Origin: Candidatus Methylomirabilota bacterium
GTDB lineage: Bacteria; Methylomirabilota; Methylomirabilia; Rokubacteriales; CSP1-6
Reading direction: 5' to 3'
Assembly (NCBI GenBank): GCA_046726415.1
Contig: JBKPAK010000176.1
Span: forward strand, 1 to 23,202
DNA: 23,202 bases
Shown: piece after piece, positions 16,982-23,202 of the stretch
How the letters are laid out: each line of letters starts with the position of its first letter
Position numbering within the stretch: the stretch's first letter is position 1
Translations under genes and position numbers: made by a program
The notes under the pieces: generated by a model
What the model was told of the DNA's origin: nothing
Databases searched by the model: none
Seen by the model: the letters and a program-made list of their open reading frames with translations, nothing else

Positions 16982-17030
16982 GATCCCCTCCACGTCATCG
17001 GTGCCTGGGCAGGCGGCGTCGCGCGCGGTC

Positions 17031-17966
17031 TCAGCCTCGCGTGCTCGACGGCGCCTGGGCGGCGGCCGCCTTCACGTAGCGCGCGATCTCGGCGTGGGTG
17101 GCGAACCACACGCCGGCGTGGCCGCGGATGTACTCAATCAGCCGCTCGAGGAGGGTGATGCGCGAGCGGTGGCCGATGATGTGGGGGTGCATGGTCAAGA
17201 GGAACAACCCGCTCTCCGCGCAGGCGCCGTCGAACTCGGCCTTGAAGATCTCGAGCACCGCCGAGGGCGGTGTGTAGGGTCGCAGGCCCGAGAAGCGGTC
17301 CATGTTGAAGTAGATCGCGTCGTCGCGGATCCACTCCACTGGCAGCTCGACCACGCCGGTCGGCTCGCCGTCCTCGACTAGCTCGTACGGATCGTCGTCG
17401 GCCATCAGCGAGGAATCGTAGAGGAGCCCCATCTCGCGCGAGATGGCCAAGGTATGCGCGCTGAAGTCCCAGGACGGCGTGCGGAGCCCCACCGGGCGCA
17501 TGCCGGCAATTCGCTCGAGCGTGTCGGCGGCCCTCTTCTGGAGGTCGCGCTCGGACGCGGACGGCAGGATGCTGTTGCGCTCGTGAATCCAGCCGTGGAT
17601 GCCAATCTCGTGGCCCGCGTCGACCACGCGGCGCTGCTCGTCGGGATAGAGCGCGGCGATCACCGCGGGGACAAAGAACGTGGCCGGAATGCGGTGCCTT
17701 TCGAGGAGGGCCAGGATGCGCGGGACGCCTTGCCGGGAGCCATACTGTCCCTGGGAGAGCTTGCCGGGCGACGTCTCGCCCTCGCGCAGGGTCCCGCTCT
17801 CATGGTCGGAGTCGAATGACAGGGCCACCGCCACCCGCGCGCCGTCCTTCCACTGCTGGGGCCTCAGCGAGCGCCCGGCCCTAACCTTGCCGACGATGCC
17901 ACGCCAGGTCTCCTCCGGCCACTGCCACGGCAACACCTGGGCACTCTTTCCTTTCTTGGCGCTCAT
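17031..17966 (-). CDS. CE4 polysaccharide deacetylase family (PuuE/HpPgdA-like cyclic amide hydrolase)
   Basis: SFDSD, ATFFVP, HEIGIHGWIHE, RTPSW, YDSS and TMHP motifs; no signal peptide; AAGGAGG RBS. Confidence 0.9.
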   Translation of the reverse strand: MSAKKGKSAQVLPWQWPEETWRGIVGKVRAGRSLRPQQWKDGARVAVALSFDSDHESGTLREGETSPGKLSQGQYGSRQGVPRILALLERHRIPATFFVPAVIAALYPDEQRRVVDAGHEIGIHGWIHERNSILPSASERDLQKRAADTLERIAGMRPVGLRTPSWDFSAHTLAISREMGLLYDSSLMADDDPYELVEDGEPTGVVELPVEWIRDDAIYFNMDRFSGLRPYTPPSAVLEIFKAEFDGACAESGLFLLTMHPHIIGHRSRITLLERLIEYIRGHAGVWFATHAEIARYVKAAAAQAPSSTRG

Positions 17967-18158
17967 CGTTCGCCCTCCTTTCGCCTGCCCGATCTGTGCG
18001 CGCTTTCGCGCGTCGCGTACGCTCGGGGGCTAGTCTATCCTGCGCCGGCGACAACCCGCGCCGCCCGCGCGGACGAGGCAGGTCACCTCACGGTCCCATT
18101 CCCCATCCGGGTGATAGGGTGAGACGGCAGGAGCAGCGCCGGCATAGAATCGTCTCAC

Positions 18159-19055
18159 ATGAGGCGTCGTGGCCAATACGTGGCGCTGGCCCTGGGACTC
18201 TACACGGGCGTTCTCGGAGGCTGCGTCGGCACGACTGCCCACCAGTCCATCGCGACGAGCGAGCCCGATGGCACCTCAGAGCACATTCCCGCCGCGGTGA
18301 CCAAGCCCGATGGGGCGGGTCCGTTCCCCGCGATCGTGATCATGCACGATTGTAGTGGGCTCGGTCCCGCCTCCAGTGGCGCCCCGGCCCGCTGGGCGCG
18401 AGAACTCGTGGGGCAGGGATACGTCGTCGTCATCCCGGACAGCTTCACGACCCGAGGCCACGCCGGCGGCGTGTGCACCGACGCGTCTCCCAGCCGGAAT
18501 GACGTCAGTCCTACTCGGCGCGTCCGCGACGCGTACTGGGCGCTCGCCTATCTCCGGGCCTTGCCGTACGTCGATGGACGCCGCGTGGGCCTCATGGGCG
18601 GCTCGCACGGCGGGACGACGACCTTGGCCTCGATGCTCGCGCCGGAGAGCGACTCGGAGCCGCTCGCCCAGGACCGGCGCCGGGGCTTCGCCGCCGCGGT
18701 GGCGCTCTATCCGGCGTGCGGGGCGCGCTCCAGAGCCTGGCGCTCCCCTGCTTCCGGCGTGTACAAACCCATCGCGCCCTTGCTGATCCTCATCGGAGAG
18801 AAGGACGACTGGACGCCGGCCGAAGCCTGCCGGACGCTGATCGAAGCTTCCCGGGCCGCCGGCTATCCGGTCGCGATCAAGGTCTATCCAGGGGCGCACC
18901 ACTCGTTCGACAGCAACAATCCGGTGCGCTACGTGGCCGCCCGCGTCAACGCGAATTCGCCCACCGGGCGCGGCGCCACCACCGGCGGCGATCCTCAGGC
19001 CTGGGCCGACAGCGTCCAGGAGGTCGTGGCGTTCTTCGGCCAGCACCTCAAGTAA
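18159..19055 (+). CDS. Dienelactone hydrolase family protein, probably an exported lipoprotein
   Basis: LGGC lipobox-like signal, GGSHGG, IGEKDDWTP and YPGAHHSFD (Ser-Asp-His triad). Confidence 0.85.
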   Translation: MRRRGQYVALALGLYTGVLGGCVGTTAHQSIATSEPDGTSEHIPAAVTKPDGAGPFPAIVIMHDCSGLGPASSGAPARWARELVGQGYVVVIPDSFTTRGHAGGVCTDASPSRNDVSPTRRVRDAYWALAYLRALPYVDGRRVGLMGGSHGGTTTLASMLAPESDSEPLAQDRRRGFAAAVALYPACGARSRAWRSPASGVYKPIAPLLILIGEKDDWTPAEACRTLIEASRAAGYPVAIKVYPGAHHSFDSNNPVRYVAARVNANSPTGRGATTGGDPQAWADSVQEVVAFFGQHLK

Positions 19056-19192
19056 GGACTGGCCGCTCCGTGGTCACACCCCGCGGGGGCCACGGTGCCA
19101 AGCGGCAGAAGGCGGGGACGGGTATGATCCGGACGGAGCGAGCCGATCCGGCGTGGCGCAACGACTCATTCCAGTGCGACGGAGGAGAAGAC

Positions 19193-20098
19193 ATGGCCGT
19201 GTCCGTAGGATTCATCGGTGTCGGGAACATGGGCAACCCCATGGCGGGCAACGTGTTGAAGGCCGGCTTTGCCATGACCGTCTTCGACAAGAACTCGCAA
19301 GCGATGGCCAACCTGGTCCAGGCCGGGGCTCGCGGTGCGGCCTCGGCAGCGGAGCTGGTCGAGCGGTCCGAGATCGTGCTGACATGCCTGCCGGCCTCTC
19401 CGGATGTCGAGGCCCTCTACCTGGAGCCCGGCGGCTTGATCGAGCGTGCCAAACCGGGAACGATCCTCATCGATCTGAGCAGCGTCCTTCCCTCCACACC
19501 GCGCAAGCTCGAGCCTCGCGCGAAAGCGCGCGGGGTGCACTTCTTGGAGGCGCCGGTGAGCGGCGGTGTCAGCGGAGCCCGGGCCGCCACCTTGGCCATC
19601 ATGGTGGGTGGTGATCCACAGGTCCTGGAGCGCGCCCGGCCGGTGCTCCGCGCCATCGGGCCGAACATCTTCAGTGTGGGACCGGTCGGGGCCGGCAACA
19701 CCGTGAAGGCGATCAACAACATGATGGCCTGCGTCAACTCGCTGGCGATGATGGAAGGCGTGGTGCTCGGCGTGAAGGCCGGGCTCGACCCGATGACGAT
19801 CTACGAAGTGGTCAAGGCGAGCAGCGGCGGCAGCAAGGCCCTCGAGCGCATCCCCACCGCGCTGGTCCCGCGCAAGTTCGAGCCCGGCTTCAAGGTGCAA
19901 CTAATGAACAAGGATCTCGACACGTTCAACACCATCGCCAAGGAGCTGCACGTGCCGGTCAGCTTCTCCAACGTCGCCCAGCGCTACCAGCAGGCGGCGA
20001 TGGCGGCCGGCCTGGCCGACTACGACACCAGCGTGGCGGTGACGATCATCGAGCGCCTGGCGGCGGTGGAAATCCCCAAAGGATCGGCATCGAGCTGA
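19193..20098 (+). CDS. Beta-hydroxyacid dehydrogenase (3-hydroxyisobutyrate dehydrogenase / tartronate semialdehyde reductase family)
   Basis: GFIGVGNMG, FLEAPVSGG, IMVGG, KAINN (catalytic Lys) and KDL motifs; GGAGG RBS and TATGAT at 19123-19128. Confidence 0.93.
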   Translation: MAVSVGFIGVGNMGNPMAGNVLKAGFAMTVFDKNSQAMANLVQAGARGAASAAELVERSEIVLTCLPASPDVEALYLEPGGLIERAKPGTILIDLSSVLPSTPRKLEPRAKARGVHFLEAPVSGGVSGARAATLAIMVGGDPQVLERARPVLRAIGPNIFSVGPVGAGNTVKAINNMMACVNSLAMMEGVVLGVKAGLDPMTIYEVVKASSGGSKALERIPTALVPRKFEPGFKVQLMNKDLDTFNTIAKELHVPVSFSNVAQRYQQAAMAAGLADYDTSVAVTIIERLAAVEIPKGSASS

Positions 20099-20186
20099 GA
20101 GCGATCGACCAAGGGGCGGCGACCTCGGCCGGCGCCCGCGCAGCGCCTCTCGCGGCCCAAATGCCGAGGGCCGTCCTAGTGCGCGC

Positions 20187-20570
20187 TCAGGCCGGACGGC
20201 CGTCCGATGGCTCGGGGAACAGTTCCGGACCCCACGAGCGGTGCGCCGCGGCATCGGCCGGAAGGAATCGGAAGCCTGCGCTCATCGCGAAGGATCGGTC
20301 GATATCTGAATCGCCGATGTGGTAGTACGCGGCCGCCGCGAAGCGGGCCTTGACGTCCGCGAGCCGATGCTTCAGCACCGTGAAGTCGACCTCGATGTGG
20401 AGCTGCTCCCACAGCGCCTGCTGATAGCGGATCGTGCGATCCGAGCAGCTCCCGATGAAGTACCCCAACCGCTGGGCCTGCCGTACCAGCGCGATGGGGA
20501 CAATGCCCGGAGGCTCGCCGATCTCGAGCGTTCCGTCGATGTCGAAGCTGACCAGCGTCAGCCTACTCAC
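20187..20570 (-). CDS. Minimal (capless) HAD-superfamily phosphatase, 127 aa
   Basis: Motif I FDIDGTL, motif II SCSDR, Lys in LKH and motif IV IGDSDID; GTG 20570 overlaps the upstream TGA (GTGA), with an alternative ATG at 20594. Confidence 0.82.
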   Translation of the reverse strand: MSRLTLVSFDIDGTLEIGEPPGIVPIALVRQAQRLGYFIGSCSDRTIRYQQALWEQLHIEVDFTVLKHRLADVKARFAAAAYYHIGDSDIDRSFAMSAGFRFLPADAAAHRSWGPELFPEPSDGRPA

Positions 20571-21199
20571 AGCCCGGGCAATCCGTGGGTCCATGTCGGA
20601 AGCGGCGGATGCTGGCTCACCAGTCGGCCTTCGCGATAGACGGCGACGATCCGGTACGGAGCGTCATAGGAACTGTTGTCGATGACGTAGGCCTCGTCGA
20701 CGATCGCGATGGCGGCTCGGAGATTCGCCAACGTCCTCGGAAAGCGCGCATGCAGCTTCTCGGTCGGGACATCATGACCACCATGGCGGACGCGCTGCTG
20801 TACGCGGGCGGCGGCGAGGAGGGGGCTGTCGAGGCCGATGAACACCAGGAATATCGCGAACCCCCGGGTTCGCGCGTGGTCGAGAAACCCCAGCTTGGCG
20901 CGGGCGGGGTCGGAGAATACCGTCTCGGTGCAGAAGGAGAGACTCGCCTCCAGGAACGCCAGCCGCAGTCGCTCGGCCTCTCGGAAGGCGCGGCGGTCGA
21001 TGTCATCGGACGGGGCGGTCGGCTGGACTCTGCGCAGAAGGCGGGCGATGCGGTCGGCATTGACATACGGCAGTCCCAGCGTCTCGAGGTACTCGTCGAA
21101 GAACGTAGTCTTCCCAGAGCCGTTGGGGCCGGCGAGGAAGATCAGCACGGGCCGAGCGGCCCGGGCCGCCCGGATCGATGCCGCCGGATCAGCCCTCAC
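20567..21199 (-). CDS. Zeta-toxin-like P-loop kinase/ATPase (COG4185/AAA_33-like)
   Basis: LAGPNGSGKTT Walker A, YVNAD, ETVFS, RVQQRVRHGGHDVP lid and IDNS motifs. Confidence 0.88.
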   Translation of the reverse strand: MRADPAASIRAARAARPVLIFLAGPNGSGKTTFFDEYLETLGLPYVNADRIARLLRRVQPTAPSDDIDRRAFREAERLRLAFLEASLSFCTETVFSDPARAKLGFLDHARTRGFAIFLVFIGLDSPLLAAARVQQRVRHGGHDVPTEKLHARFPRTLANLRAAIAIVDEAYVIDNSSYDAPYRIVAVYREGRLVSQHPPLPTWTHGLPGL

Positions 21200-21615
21200 G
21201 ATCGCCGGGTCGATGCCTTCCTTCTGGCCGGCACAAAGCGGCGGCCCTCCAGGCGGCCCGGCGTCCGGGTCCCGTCGGCCTGGATCTCGACGATCATGTC
21301 GGGATGCTCCGGGTCCGCAGTGTACAGCGGCGTCCCCGTGGCGCGAATGCGCGCCTTGACCTTCTTGCGATCTCCGTCGTCGACGAGCCGCGCCAGAAGA
21401 TCGTGCACCTCTTCACGGGGAACGAAGGTCGGCATCGGCACGGCCAGGCCGGCTCGCTTGAGGAGCAGCACGTCGCGATAGGCCACCATCACTTCCACGG
21501 CTCGGCCGAGCGTCGCCCAGTGCTCGATCTGCGCGGTGGCCGAACGATGCGTTCCGTGGGCTTCCTCTCTGGCCAGGGCCAGCAGCCGATCCGAGACTTT
21601 CACGGGCGATGGCAT
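21196..21615 (-). CDS. ParD-like (RHH) antitoxin with C-terminal extension
   Basis: PVKVSDRL...A......RSATAQIEHWATLGRAVE is the ParD_like signature; AGGAGG RBS; GTGA overlap with the kinase gene. Confidence 0.82.
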   Translation of the reverse strand: MPSPVKVSDRLLALAREEAHGTHRSATAQIEHWATLGRAVEVMVAYRDVLLLKRAGLAVPMPTFVPREEVHDLLARLVDDGDRKKVKARIRATGTPLYTADPEHPDMIVEIQADGTRTPGRLEGRRFVPARRKASTRRS

Positions 21616-21631
21616 CTGGGCCTCCTGGTTG

Positions 21632-21670
21632 GGTAGCTCTTTGCTACTATCATGGTAGCACTTTACTACC
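21632..21670. promoter_or_regulatory. Nested palindromic operator overlapping the promoter of the antitoxin-kinase-phosphatase operon
   Basis: GGTAGC-TCTTT-GCTACT (21632-21648) and GGTAGC-ACTTT-ACTACC (21654-21670); minus-strand CATGAT -10 candidate in the centre. Confidence 0.75.
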
Positions 21671-21823
21671 GCGGGGGCCGAGGGGCAACCGGCGCACGCC
21701 TGTCGCTCCGTGCCCAGCGCGCCGGACGGCCCATCGCCGGTGGCCCCAGCCGCCCCGCCCCACGGTCACCCCCGGCCGGCCATGCCACAATACGTCTGGG
21801 GGAACGATCGAGGGGAGGAGCGC

Positions 21824-22984
21824 ATGCGATTGAGTCTAGCCTACGAGATGCAGCGGCCGGTAGTCGATGATCACGCGGTCATCGAAGAGACCATCGAACA
21901 GTGCGTGCTGGCCGACCAGATGGGGTTCGACACTCTGTGGTTCGTGGAACATCACTTTCTCACCAGCTTCTCGATGTCGCCGTGCCCGGAGGTCCTCTTC
22001 GGGGCACTCAGTCGCCTGACCAAGCGCATCCGCCTGGGTTTCGGCGTGGTAATCCTCCCCTACCACCACCCCGTTCGGGTGGCCGAGCGCGTGGCCATGG
22101 TCGACCACATGTCCGGCGGACGAGTCGAGTTCGGGACCGGGCGGTCGGCTCCCTACGAGCAGATTGGGATGGGCATTGACCCGCGGAACACGCGCGCCAT
22201 GTGGGAAGAATCCCTCCGGATGATTCCGCGGATTTGGGAGGACGGCCAATTTTCGTGGGAGGGCCAGTTCTGGAGTGTCCCGCCGCGCGACGTTCGTCCC
22301 AAGCCCTATCAGAAGCCACATCCCCGCATCTGGGTCGCCGCCTTGCAGCCGGCCACGTATCGGCTGGCCGCCGAGACGGGCATTGGCGTGATGGCGCTCA
22401 GCGTCGCCGCTCCCTCCTACCTTGCCCCCCACATCAAGGAGTACAAGGAGCGGGTCCGCCACGCGAAGCCGGTCGGCAAGGTCATCAACGACCAGTGGCT
22501 GAGTGCAACCATGGGCCTGTGTGGCCGCGACAACCAGGCCGCCCGTGAGCTGGCCGCCAAGTCGCTGCGAACGTTCTTCGGGCCGGACCGCCCGTATCTG
22601 AAGGATCAGACCCACCTCTATGAGCAGCTCGTCGAGTCGTGGGGAGGCGTGCCGGAGCACTTGACCGCCAACTTTGCCCGCTACCTGAAGAGGGACGGCG
22701 CGGCCGGCGCGCCCGAGGTGGATCTGTCCGGCGGATCTGGACAGATCGCCTCTGCCCTCTGGAATCAGATCGACGCCGACACTCTCGTCGACCGCGGCGT
22801 TCTCGTGGCTGGCGATCCCGAGAGCTGCCTCAAGAGCATCGCCATCCACGAAGCGGCGGGTGTCGACGAGTTGCAGTTCCTCATGGCGACCGAGACGGTG
22901 GCGCACGAGAAGGTGATGTCGTCCATCGAGCTGTTCGGCAAGTACGTCATCCCCGAGCTGAAGAAGAGGACGGCGACGGTTTAG
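21824..22984 (+). CDS. LLM-class (luciferase-like) flavin-dependent oxidoreductase
   Basis: GFDTLWFVEHHF, HPVRVAERVAMVDHMSGGRVEFGTGR, PKPYQKPHPRIW and GDPESC motifs; ATG 21824 with GGGGAGGAG RBS. Confidence 0.93.
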   Translation: MRLSLAYEMQRPVVDDHAVIEETIEQCVLADQMGFDTLWFVEHHFLTSFSMSPCPEVLFGALSRLTKRIRLGFGVVILPYHHPVRVAERVAMVDHMSGGRVEFGTGRSAPYEQIGMGIDPRNTRAMWEESLRMIPRIWEDGQFSWEGQFWSVPPRDVRPKPYQKPHPRIWVAALQPATYRLAAETGIGVMALSVAAPSYLAPHIKEYKERVRHAKPVGKVINDQWLSATMGLCGRDNQAARELAAKSLRTFFGPDRPYLKDQTHLYEQLVESWGGVPEHLTANFARYLKRDGAAGAPEVDLSGGSGQIASALWNQIDADTLVDRGVLVAGDPESCLKSIAIHEAAGVDELQFLMATETVAHEKVMSSIELFGKYVIPELKKRTATV

Positions 22985-23202
22985 GACGAAGCGCCCTCCT
23001 TGTCGGTCAACGGCACGATGGCGTAGAACCGCGGTTGGTCTCCTACCACTCGCGTGATGTGCCCCTGGCCAGTCAGGTCTTCGGCCAGCACCACGTCACC
23101 CGGCCCGACGCGCGCGACCGTGCCATCGCCCACCTCGATTTCCGCGATCCCTGACAACGAGATCGAGTACTGCCTCCTGGGCGCACAGTGCCAGTCCAGC
23201 AC
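22981..23202 (-). CDS. Small cupin-like protein, 5' truncated by the window edge
   Basis: DWHCAPRRQY...LSGIAEIEVGDG...PGDVVLAEDLTGQGH pattern; its stop codon overlaps that of the convergent LLM gene. Confidence 0.78.
   Translation of the reverse strand: MLDWHCAPRRQYSISLSGIAEIEVGDGTVARVGPGDVVLAEDLTGQGHITRVVGDQPRFYAIVPLTDKEGASS

Follow-up and report, generated by a model that had tools for sequence, protein, structure and literature searches.

We analysed a 23,202-nucleotide (nt) stretch of DNA, contig JBKPAK010000176.1 of a Candidatus Methylomirabilota bacterium (source genome G000; the whole stretch is called the window below), and focused on a locus at positions 20187..21670 where three minus-strand genes follow one another: an antitoxin gene, a gene for a P-loop kinase with the fold of zeta toxins, and a gene for a small protein of the haloacid dehalogenase (HAD) superfamily. 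A preliminary description of this DNA had proposed that the three form one functional module, with the HAD as a third component that would erase the product of the toxin. Our analysis makes another reading highly probable, namely that the locus is a self-contained two-gene type II toxin-antitoxin (TA) cassette of the non-canonical PezAT-like type that lies beside a resident HAD gene, and that the HAD is not a conserved third component, because the pair is conserved without the HAD and the HAD family occurs without the pair.

The layout given in the preliminary description was borne out. Reading of the open reading frames (ORFs) confirmed three chained minus-strand genes, in the order antitoxin, kinase, HAD, joined by two GTGA stop/start overlaps (21196-21199 and 20567-20570). 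At the first of these the antitoxin stop TGA (21198-21196) shares bases with the kinase GTG (21199-21197), and at the second the kinase stop TGA (20569-20567) shares bases with the HAD GTG (20570-20568). A single ribosome-binding site (AGGAGG, 21626-21621) precedes the first gene, with a palindromic operator upstream of it, and the proposed gene identities (ParD_like antitoxin, zeta-like P-loop kinase, capless DxDxT HAD) agree among Pfam matches, motifs and structural models. The features of the locus are the following:

21196..21615, minus strand: antitoxin gene, 139 amino acids (aa), ATG start; N-terminal ribbon-helix-helix (RHH) domain of the ParD_like type (residues 4-42)
About residues 43-127 of the antitoxin: conserved C-terminal part, toxin-binding in the complex model; ends in the motif DGTRxxGRLxxRRFVP
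20567..21199, minus strand: toxin kinase gene, 210 aa, GTG start; short P-loop kinase of the zeta/PezT/AvrRxo1 fold
20187..20570, minus strand: HAD gene, 127 aa from the GTG at 20570 (135 aa from an alternative ATG at 20594); capless (C0), DUF7124-like
21621..21626, minus strand: Shine-Dalgarno sequence AGGAGG, 5 nt before the antitoxin ATG, as read from the sequence
21632..21669, minus strand: putative operator, two tandem 16-nt imperfect palindromes of the GGTAGTAAnnnGCTACC type
20567..21670, minus strand: extent of the TA cassette (operator, promoter, antitoxin and kinase), as delimited by DNA homology to other genomes

Of the two possible HAD starts, the GTG at 20570 is favoured, because the HAD genes of 10/10 relatives start 7-9 residues ahead of the DIDGT motif.

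The antitoxin-kinase pair and its known relatives

The antitoxin matches the Pfam family ParD_like (PF11903, E = 2.6e-12) over residues 4-42 of its 139 only. An alignment of 32 antitoxin sequences, conserved in the C-terminal part as well, contained 21 invariant columns. The Pfam search gave ParD_like only and showed no similarity to epsilon or PezA. Modelled together, antitoxin and kinase reached a score of 0.75, versus 0.05 for the best control (in this type of model 116 of 157 solved complexes attain the score mark, as do 2 of 215 mismatched pairs). The model runs share at least 76% of their contacts, the partner pLDDT (predicted local distance difference test) being at least 72, and in them antitoxin residues 43-127 contact kinase residues 32-44, 123-139 and 176-182, comprising the P-loop helix and the R132/R136 region. 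The model speaks for an antitoxin that binds the kinase.

Upstream of the antitoxin ATG, a tandem palindrome is the sole conserved block among 8 aligned orthologous loci. Its two copies lie at 21632-21647 and 21654-21669, 22 nt from start to start, and it overlaps the likely -10 region of the cassette promoter. This element is very probably the operator of the RHH antitoxin, to which the antitoxin would bind. GGAGG-like motifs stand at the position of the ribosome-binding site in the orthologues. A consensus scan for promoters and terminators over 19900-21900 returned nothing, a result that is uninformative at 67% GC. The public runs that contain the stretch hold it in contigs of DNA type, and runs labelled as RNA matched at most 0.12 of the sampled words.

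The kinase scores above the curated Pfam thresholds of two families, AAA_33 (E = 7.4e-10; 39.7 bits against a cut-off of 27) and Zeta_toxin (PF06414; E = 6e-9; 36.1 bits against a cut-off of 22.3), the latter over profile positions 12-183 of 199. A Walker A motif, AGPNGSGKT, occupies residues 23-31, and 16 positions are invariant in 26 homologues (A23, G24, N26, G27, G29, K30, D49, F89, E92, L128, R132, G141, H142, R152, N159 and D174). D49 would be the equivalent of zeta D67, the Asp that deprotonates the substrate, as judged from its position and from a 2019 survey (PMC6362051) rather than from a residue-level structural alignment. The GTXR motif, described in the same text as binding UDP-N-acetylglucosamine (UDP-GlcNAc, or UNAG) in zeta and PezT, is absent from the kinase: E92 is followed by TVFSD, and family-wide by T-[TV]-[FL]-[SGA]. 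Because this motif is missing, the target of the kinase is probably not UDP-GlcNAc.

Sequence-only searches of the PDB, made with the kinase alone or with a kinase profile, were dominated by generic P-loop matches, with gluconokinase and dephospho-CoA kinase outranking PezT. Since these searches failed to single out zeta toxins, a fold search was needed. The kinase model (pLDDT 93.2, predicted TM-score (pTM) 0.90) had AvrRxo1, PezT or zeta structures as all of its top ten PDB fold matches, with E values of 1.3e-7 to 1.4e-6 and TMq values of 0.57-0.68. Close homologues are named by their sources "zeta toxin family protein" or "predicted ABC-type ATPase", and at least 2436 homologues at E<=1e-5 were present among the 8000 candidates scored. 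Our literature search returned nothing that ties COG4185 to toxins.

By its architecture, an RHH/ParD_like antitoxin followed by a short kinase of the zeta fold without the UNAG motif, the pair belongs to a known, non-canonical PezAT-like kind, which the 2019 survey found mostly in Corynebacteriales (PMC6362051). Two mycobacterial pairs share this architecture: Rv0366c/Rv0367c, for which toxicity and rescue by the upstream gene are reported (PMC6362051), and a pair of Mycobacterium sp. MHSD3, reported as toxic and neutralised (PMC5728571). The mycobacterial antitoxin is described as about 120-130 aa long, its N-terminal half being ParD_like/RHH, and as followed by a short AAA_33/zeta-like toxin (PMC6362051, PMC5728571); for Rv0366c the residues given are GPNGAGKS, Asp36, Glu75, Arg116 and His122, and GTXR is absent (PMC6362051). 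Common to the window pair and both mycobacterial pairs are an upstream antitoxin of about 120-140 aa of which only the N-terminal half is ParD_like (PF11903, RHH), and an AAA_33/Zeta_toxin kinase of about 195-210 aa that carries GPNG[AS]GK[ST] and the Asp, Glu, Arg and His residues and lacks GTXR, a likeness that consists in shared Pfam families and published motifs and not in a sequence alignment. Unlike Rv0366c/Rv0367c, the present cassette belongs to the phylum Rokubacteria/Methylomirabilota and is fused to a downstream HAD gene.

The canonical systems are more distant. Epsilon/zeta of pSM19035 and PezA/PezT of S. pneumoniae have the same toxin fold (the top ten matches include 2p5t, 1gvn and 3q8x), the Walker A motif and catalytic Asp, and an upstream protein antitoxin, which is predicted here to lie over the nucleotide-site region. 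They differ from the window pair in that the toxin is shorter here and without GTXR, and the antitoxin here carries an RHH DNA-binding domain in place of the PezA helix-turn-helix or a separate omega repressor. A three-component epsilon/zeta/omega arrangement was not found at the locus, where no gene but that of the RHH-fused antitoxin precedes the kinase. In structure the kinase model comes closest to AvrRxo1-ORF1 (4z8t_A, E = 1.3e-7, TMq 0.64), from the AvrRxo1-ORF1/ORF2 (Arc1) system of Xanthomonas, which is also a zeta-family kinase and has a non-UNAG substrate, NAD. AvrRxo1 differs in being the larger protein (about 330 residues in the target chain), secreted as a type III effector and equipped with further domains, and its partner is unrelated to ParD_like.

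Genomic distribution of the pair and of the HAD gene

We surveyed 60 genomes of relatives, 36 from the same family and 24 from other families. Kinase orthologues with 71-78% identity were present in five of these, a patchy distribution, and in 5/5 the antitoxin gene lies directly upstream (two of the five loci, L015 and L016, gave identical hit statistics). In metagenomes, 43 of 54 returned loci held true kinase homologues (at least 43% identity), and the antitoxin was found upstream in 41 of the 43. The GTGA overlap between antitoxin and kinase is conserved in the orthologues, as is the operator.

The HAD, by contrast, does not accompany the pair. The preliminary description had suggested scoring how often kinase homologues have a ParD_like gene upstream and a HAD of this family downstream, and only the first half of this expectation stood: a HAD gene was found downstream of the kinase in 0/5 close genome loci and in 0/27 metagenome loci with at least 400 nt of downstream sequence. 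The five genomes that carry the closest cassettes (G023, G029, G030, G045 and G047, 82-97% complete) gave no HAD match genome-wide. In 20 loci the genes 3' of the kinase are mutually unrelated and include a Glx-tRNA synthetase, a cupin, a racemase, GntR regulators (three loci), Xre/RES and BrnA TA genes, and transporters. On this comparative evidence, the antitoxin-kinase pair is a two-gene cassette that moves between contexts.

At two metagenome loci the ParD_like/zeta cassette adjoins genes of other TA systems, Xre-MbcA/RES at L119:3963-4861 and BrnA at L125:2135-2776, which suggests small TA islands.

The contexts of the pair also bear on the nature of the kinase. It could be a housekeeping or regulatory kinase of a small molecule, with the ParD_like protein merely its regulator or inhibitor in a metabolic module, and a neighbouring phosphatase would then be less surprising. 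The absent UNAG motif and the lack of an assigned substrate are in keeping with this, as is the lead of gluconokinase and dephospho-CoA kinase over PezT in the sequence-only searches. We nevertheless consider it quite unlikely: zeta-family toxins fill the first ten places of the fold search and the Zeta_toxin match exceeds its cut-off; the obligatory, conserved RHH partner and the autoregulatory operator are typical of type II TA systems; the contexts are variable and mobile-like, including places beside other TA pairs, and the distribution among relatives is patchy; and the same architecture is reported as toxic in mycobacteria (PMC6362051, PMC5728571).

All four HAD motifs are present in the HAD protein, D10-I-D12-G-T14 (DIDGT), the GSCSDR segment with S41/S43, K67, and G86-D87...D91 (GDxxxD), and they show little or no variation across 40 sequences. 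The model of the 127-aa form (pLDDT 91.2) consists of alternating strand and helix elements without a cap insert, and its best fold matches, with a probability of 1.00 and TMq 0.5-0.68, are the lipin/Pah core, AQ2171, HisB-N, MDP-1, KdsC/YrbI and the T4 Pnkp phosphatase. In sequence these matches are weak (13-23% identity, E about 4e-4 or weaker), and a profile search of the PDB with the HAD gave a single weak match, 3mpo (E = 0.13). On its motifs and predicted fold, the protein is a capless C0 HAD-superfamily phosphatase-like protein. It shares motifs I-IV and the missing cap insertion with the known capless C0 HADs (KdsC/YrbI, HisB-N, MDP-1, T4 Pnkp, lipin/Pah) and differs from them in being only 13-23% identical, its nearest sequence family being the uncharacterised DUF7124. 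DUF7124 (PF23439) is its only Pfam match, at E = 2.2e-5 and 25.1-25.3 bits, under the gathering cut-off of 27 bits; NCBIfam gave a weak HAD-IIB match. A match to DUF7124 at E<=0.01 (best E = 3.7e-9) was obtained for 35 sequences of a set of 40 from the family, which thus appears to be related to DUF7124 rather than a clear member of it. The paper listed for DUF7124 in the literature search is a study of a haloarchaeal oxidoreductase.

Viewed from the HAD side, the two units are again found apart. HAD homologues with 56-80% identity occur in 10/60 relatives, all of the same family (10/36, as against 0/24 in other families), and in 0/10 of these loci does a kinase or antitoxin gene lie within about 1.5 kb (at two of them the contig ends too early for the full distance). 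A scan of genome contigs returned at least 551 stretches encoding a relative of the HAD; in the best 80 of these, examined with 4-kb flanks, kinase or antitoxin genes were found at 0/80. The two sets together make 85 distinct other HAD loci (10 + 80 minus 5 duplicate records), in Rokubacteria and Dehalococcoidia, and 0/85 contain the kinase or the antitoxin.

The proposal that the HAD acts as a third, eraser component did not survive these counts from both sides (0/5 and 0/27 kinase loci with the HAD, 0/85 HAD loci with the pair). The preliminary description had itself named a HAD not conserved next to the TA pair in other genomes as an outcome that would speak against it, and this is the outcome observed.

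The HAD gene is commonly found behind metabolic genes, or divergent from a gene for a major facilitator superfamily (MFS) transporter. Its upstream neighbours include TauD, SGL lactonase, CoA-transferase, amidohydrolases, acyl-CoA dehydrogenase, luciferase-like monooxygenase, and thiolase-like and ChsH2-like genes. By its distribution and contexts, the HAD is an independent and widespread gene.

The family comprises proteins of about 115-130 aa with an invariant GSCSDR, is widespread in Rokubacteria and Dehalococcoidia/SAR202, and its gene usually stands last after catabolic genes of various kinds; frequent predecessors in Dehalococcoidia are thiolase-like, ChsH2 OB-fold or luciferase-like monooxygenase genes. 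Two Dehalococcoidia loci have longer HAD frames, of 180 aa (L110:3992-4534) and 236 aa (L113:3992-4702), which may carry C-terminal extensions or fusions.

The kinase/HAD junction

DNA comparisons delimit the two units at the junction itself. In G001, a genome of the same genus, the matching DNA corresponds to window positions 20186-20570, that is, to the HAD gene, and stops at the HAD start codon. In G023 and G029 the match covers 20567/20565-21670, from the kinase stop to the operator, at 76% identity, with nothing beyond. The cassette and HAD homology blocks overlap by the GTGA alone, and both proteins have their native ends there: the kinase C-terminus (…GLPGL-stop) and the HAD N-terminus (V-S-R-L/V-T-L-V-S-F-D-I-D-G-T).

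Many HAD orthologues start with GTG-AGY, so that a TGA is built into the start, and in 9/80 HAD loci a Pfam-confirmed upstream enzyme gene ends in this same TGA, going by the nominal HAD start. The enzymes coupled to the HAD by 4 bp in this way are TauD (two loci), SGL lactonase (four), acyl-CoA dehydrogenase, Amidohydro_2 and glyoxalase. Because the HAD natively begins with GTG-AGY and is often coupled by 4 bp to unrelated enzymes, the GTGA overlap is a property of the HAD gene and not a tripartite signature.

A junction between two otherwise separate units might also have been created by assembly. The source genome is a metagenome-assembled genome of 352 contigs, and a large number of short contigs follow the window over the conserved DIDGT region (20523-20560) alone before diverging, both in keeping with a chimeric kinase/HAD junction. 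Among the public soil-run contigs placed on 20100-21750, however, two cross the junction: a contig of 1616 nt from run X4, which spans 20100-21594, and one of 1233 nt from run X2, which spans 20523-21750. One of the two runs may be the source sample, and at least one is independent. Because contigs from two public runs bridge the junction, the arrangement is not an artefact of a single assembly, and we regard a chimera as exceedingly improbable. The short contigs that diverge fit related organisms in which the HAD has other upstream neighbours.

Beyond the cassette, the next gene upstream of the antitoxin is a divergent luciferase-like monooxygenase gene (21821-22984, plus strand), and the remaining window genes serve ordinary metabolism and transport, without mobile-element genes among them. 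Between the TA operator and the monooxygenase, at 21671-21758, lies a 24-nt GC-rich inverted repeat, 75% complementary, with 40 nt between its arms. Orthologues of the monooxygenase with 86-90% identity stand convergent to the HAD gene and overlap its 3' end in five Rokubacteria loci (L053, L064, L071, L072 and L075), and at L074 a 90%-identical orthologue of the terminal cupin gene of the window (22981-23202, minus strand) lies directly upstream of the HAD. The same neighbours in another order suggest local reshuffling around the TA cassette in G000. A single parsimonious path of local rearrangements could not be derived and was dropped.

Several points weigh against the reading of the locus as a two-gene cassette beside an unrelated HAD. 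The kinase profile retrieves PezT from the PDB only weakly (E = 0.0041), and the comparison with Rv0366c/Rv0367c is one of families and motifs, as stated above. The exact start/stop fusion makes expression of the HAD from the TA promoter almost certain in G000. A search for an empty site, made with window 17000-23202 against two same-genus genomes, found none, the genes lying on different contigs or at distant places. With the window genes scattered over contigs in both of these genomes, the cassette may have come to the HAD or the HAD to the cassette. The comparative data alone leave room for a lineage-specific functional link between the TA pair and the HAD. Finally, in 2/85 other loci (L002 and L091) the HAD is immediately preceded, on the same strand, by a TA cassette of an unrelated type.

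These two loci came from a screen of 54 candidate ORFs upstream of the HAD. At L002:1483-2582, in G001, a Phd/ParE pair lies between the HAD and a divergent MFS gene, which is the usual neighbour of the HAD in 11 other loci; the ParE ORF (132 aa) has a C-terminal extension of about 45 aa and ends in the GTGA start of the HAD. At L091:3152-4345, in Dehalococcoidia, the place between the HAD and a ChsH2-like gene that precedes the HAD elsewhere is taken by genes for Unstab_antitox, DUF4258 and a YgiT finger. The 7.6 Mb of G000 contain 17 PIN and 2 ParE matches and a single full-length zeta match, and by a rough estimate from these G000 counts alone, for which no significance is claimed, TA genes before the HAD at 2/85 may be slightly above chance.

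The pattern at most suggests a permissive or preferred insertion site. That the HAD gene is a preferred landing site for TA cassettes, or a gene that they capture, is a quite unlikely interpretation of three unrelated cassettes in three lineages, of which two (window and L002) run their last ORF into the GTGA start of the HAD. If it were true and not chance, the HAD might benefit TA carriers, for instance by removing a phospho-metabolite that stress induces while the toxin holds the cell in stasis; alternatively, its GTG-AGY start and promoter region might be a recombination hot spot. In either event the HAD in G000 would be placed under TA autoregulation.

The evidence can now be set against the proposed eraser, a HAD that would dephosphorylate the product of the kinase toxin in a reset or resuscitation step, or a three-gene defence module. 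The three genes do form one translationally coupled operon in G000, the HAD retains all catalytic motifs and a confident HAD fold, the junction is found in independent contigs, and TA cassettes also stand in front of two other HAD loci. This last pattern gives no support to an eraser role, because the toxins at L002 and L091 are of the ParE and DUF4258 types and not kinases, which leaves no common substrate logic. The HAD is missing beside the cassette in all 5 genome loci and all 27 metagenome loci with at least 400 nt downstream, and from the whole genomes of the five closest carriers; the 85 other HAD loci are without kinase or antitoxin genes; and the GTGA overlap, which recurs with unrelated upstream enzymes, comes with the HAD start itself. 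PADLOC returned only generic P-loop noise for the kinase and no match for the antitoxin or the HAD, and so no support for a known defence system. Among the papers listed on zeta toxins with HAD phosphatases, titles and abstract openings describe no HAD third component. Taken with its few supporting points, we judge the eraser very improbable.

Proposed mechanism and significance

A two-gene cassette beside a resident HAD would work as follows. The RHH domain of the antitoxin would bind the tandem palindromes over its own promoter and repress the operon, and the C-terminal two-thirds of the antitoxin, as modelled, would wrap the kinase at the P-loop helix and the R132/R136/GGH region and thereby block it. 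Upon loss of the antitoxin, the zeta-fold kinase, by analogy with its relatives, would use ATP to phosphorylate a small-molecule target and arrest growth. The cassette would have come to abut the start codon of the resident HAD and to share its GTGA, so that the HAD would be co-transcribed with the toxin gene and translationally coupled to it. The position of the HAD beside the cassette would be an accident, and the HAD would not be an eraser subunit.

Beyond annotation the finding matters little, apart from removing the hypothesis of a kinase plus eraser. It does illustrate that a perfect 4-bp start/stop overlap is no proof of functional partnership, because the overlap here belongs to the native start of the downstream gene. 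A widespread minimal HAD family (DUF7124-like), without a characterised member, is now delineated. The RHH/ParD_like plus short zeta-kinase type, which was described from Corynebacteriales, is abundant in soil Rokubacteria, and the conserved, well-defined operator of the pair may make it a clean model for finding the substrate of zeta toxins that lack GTXR.

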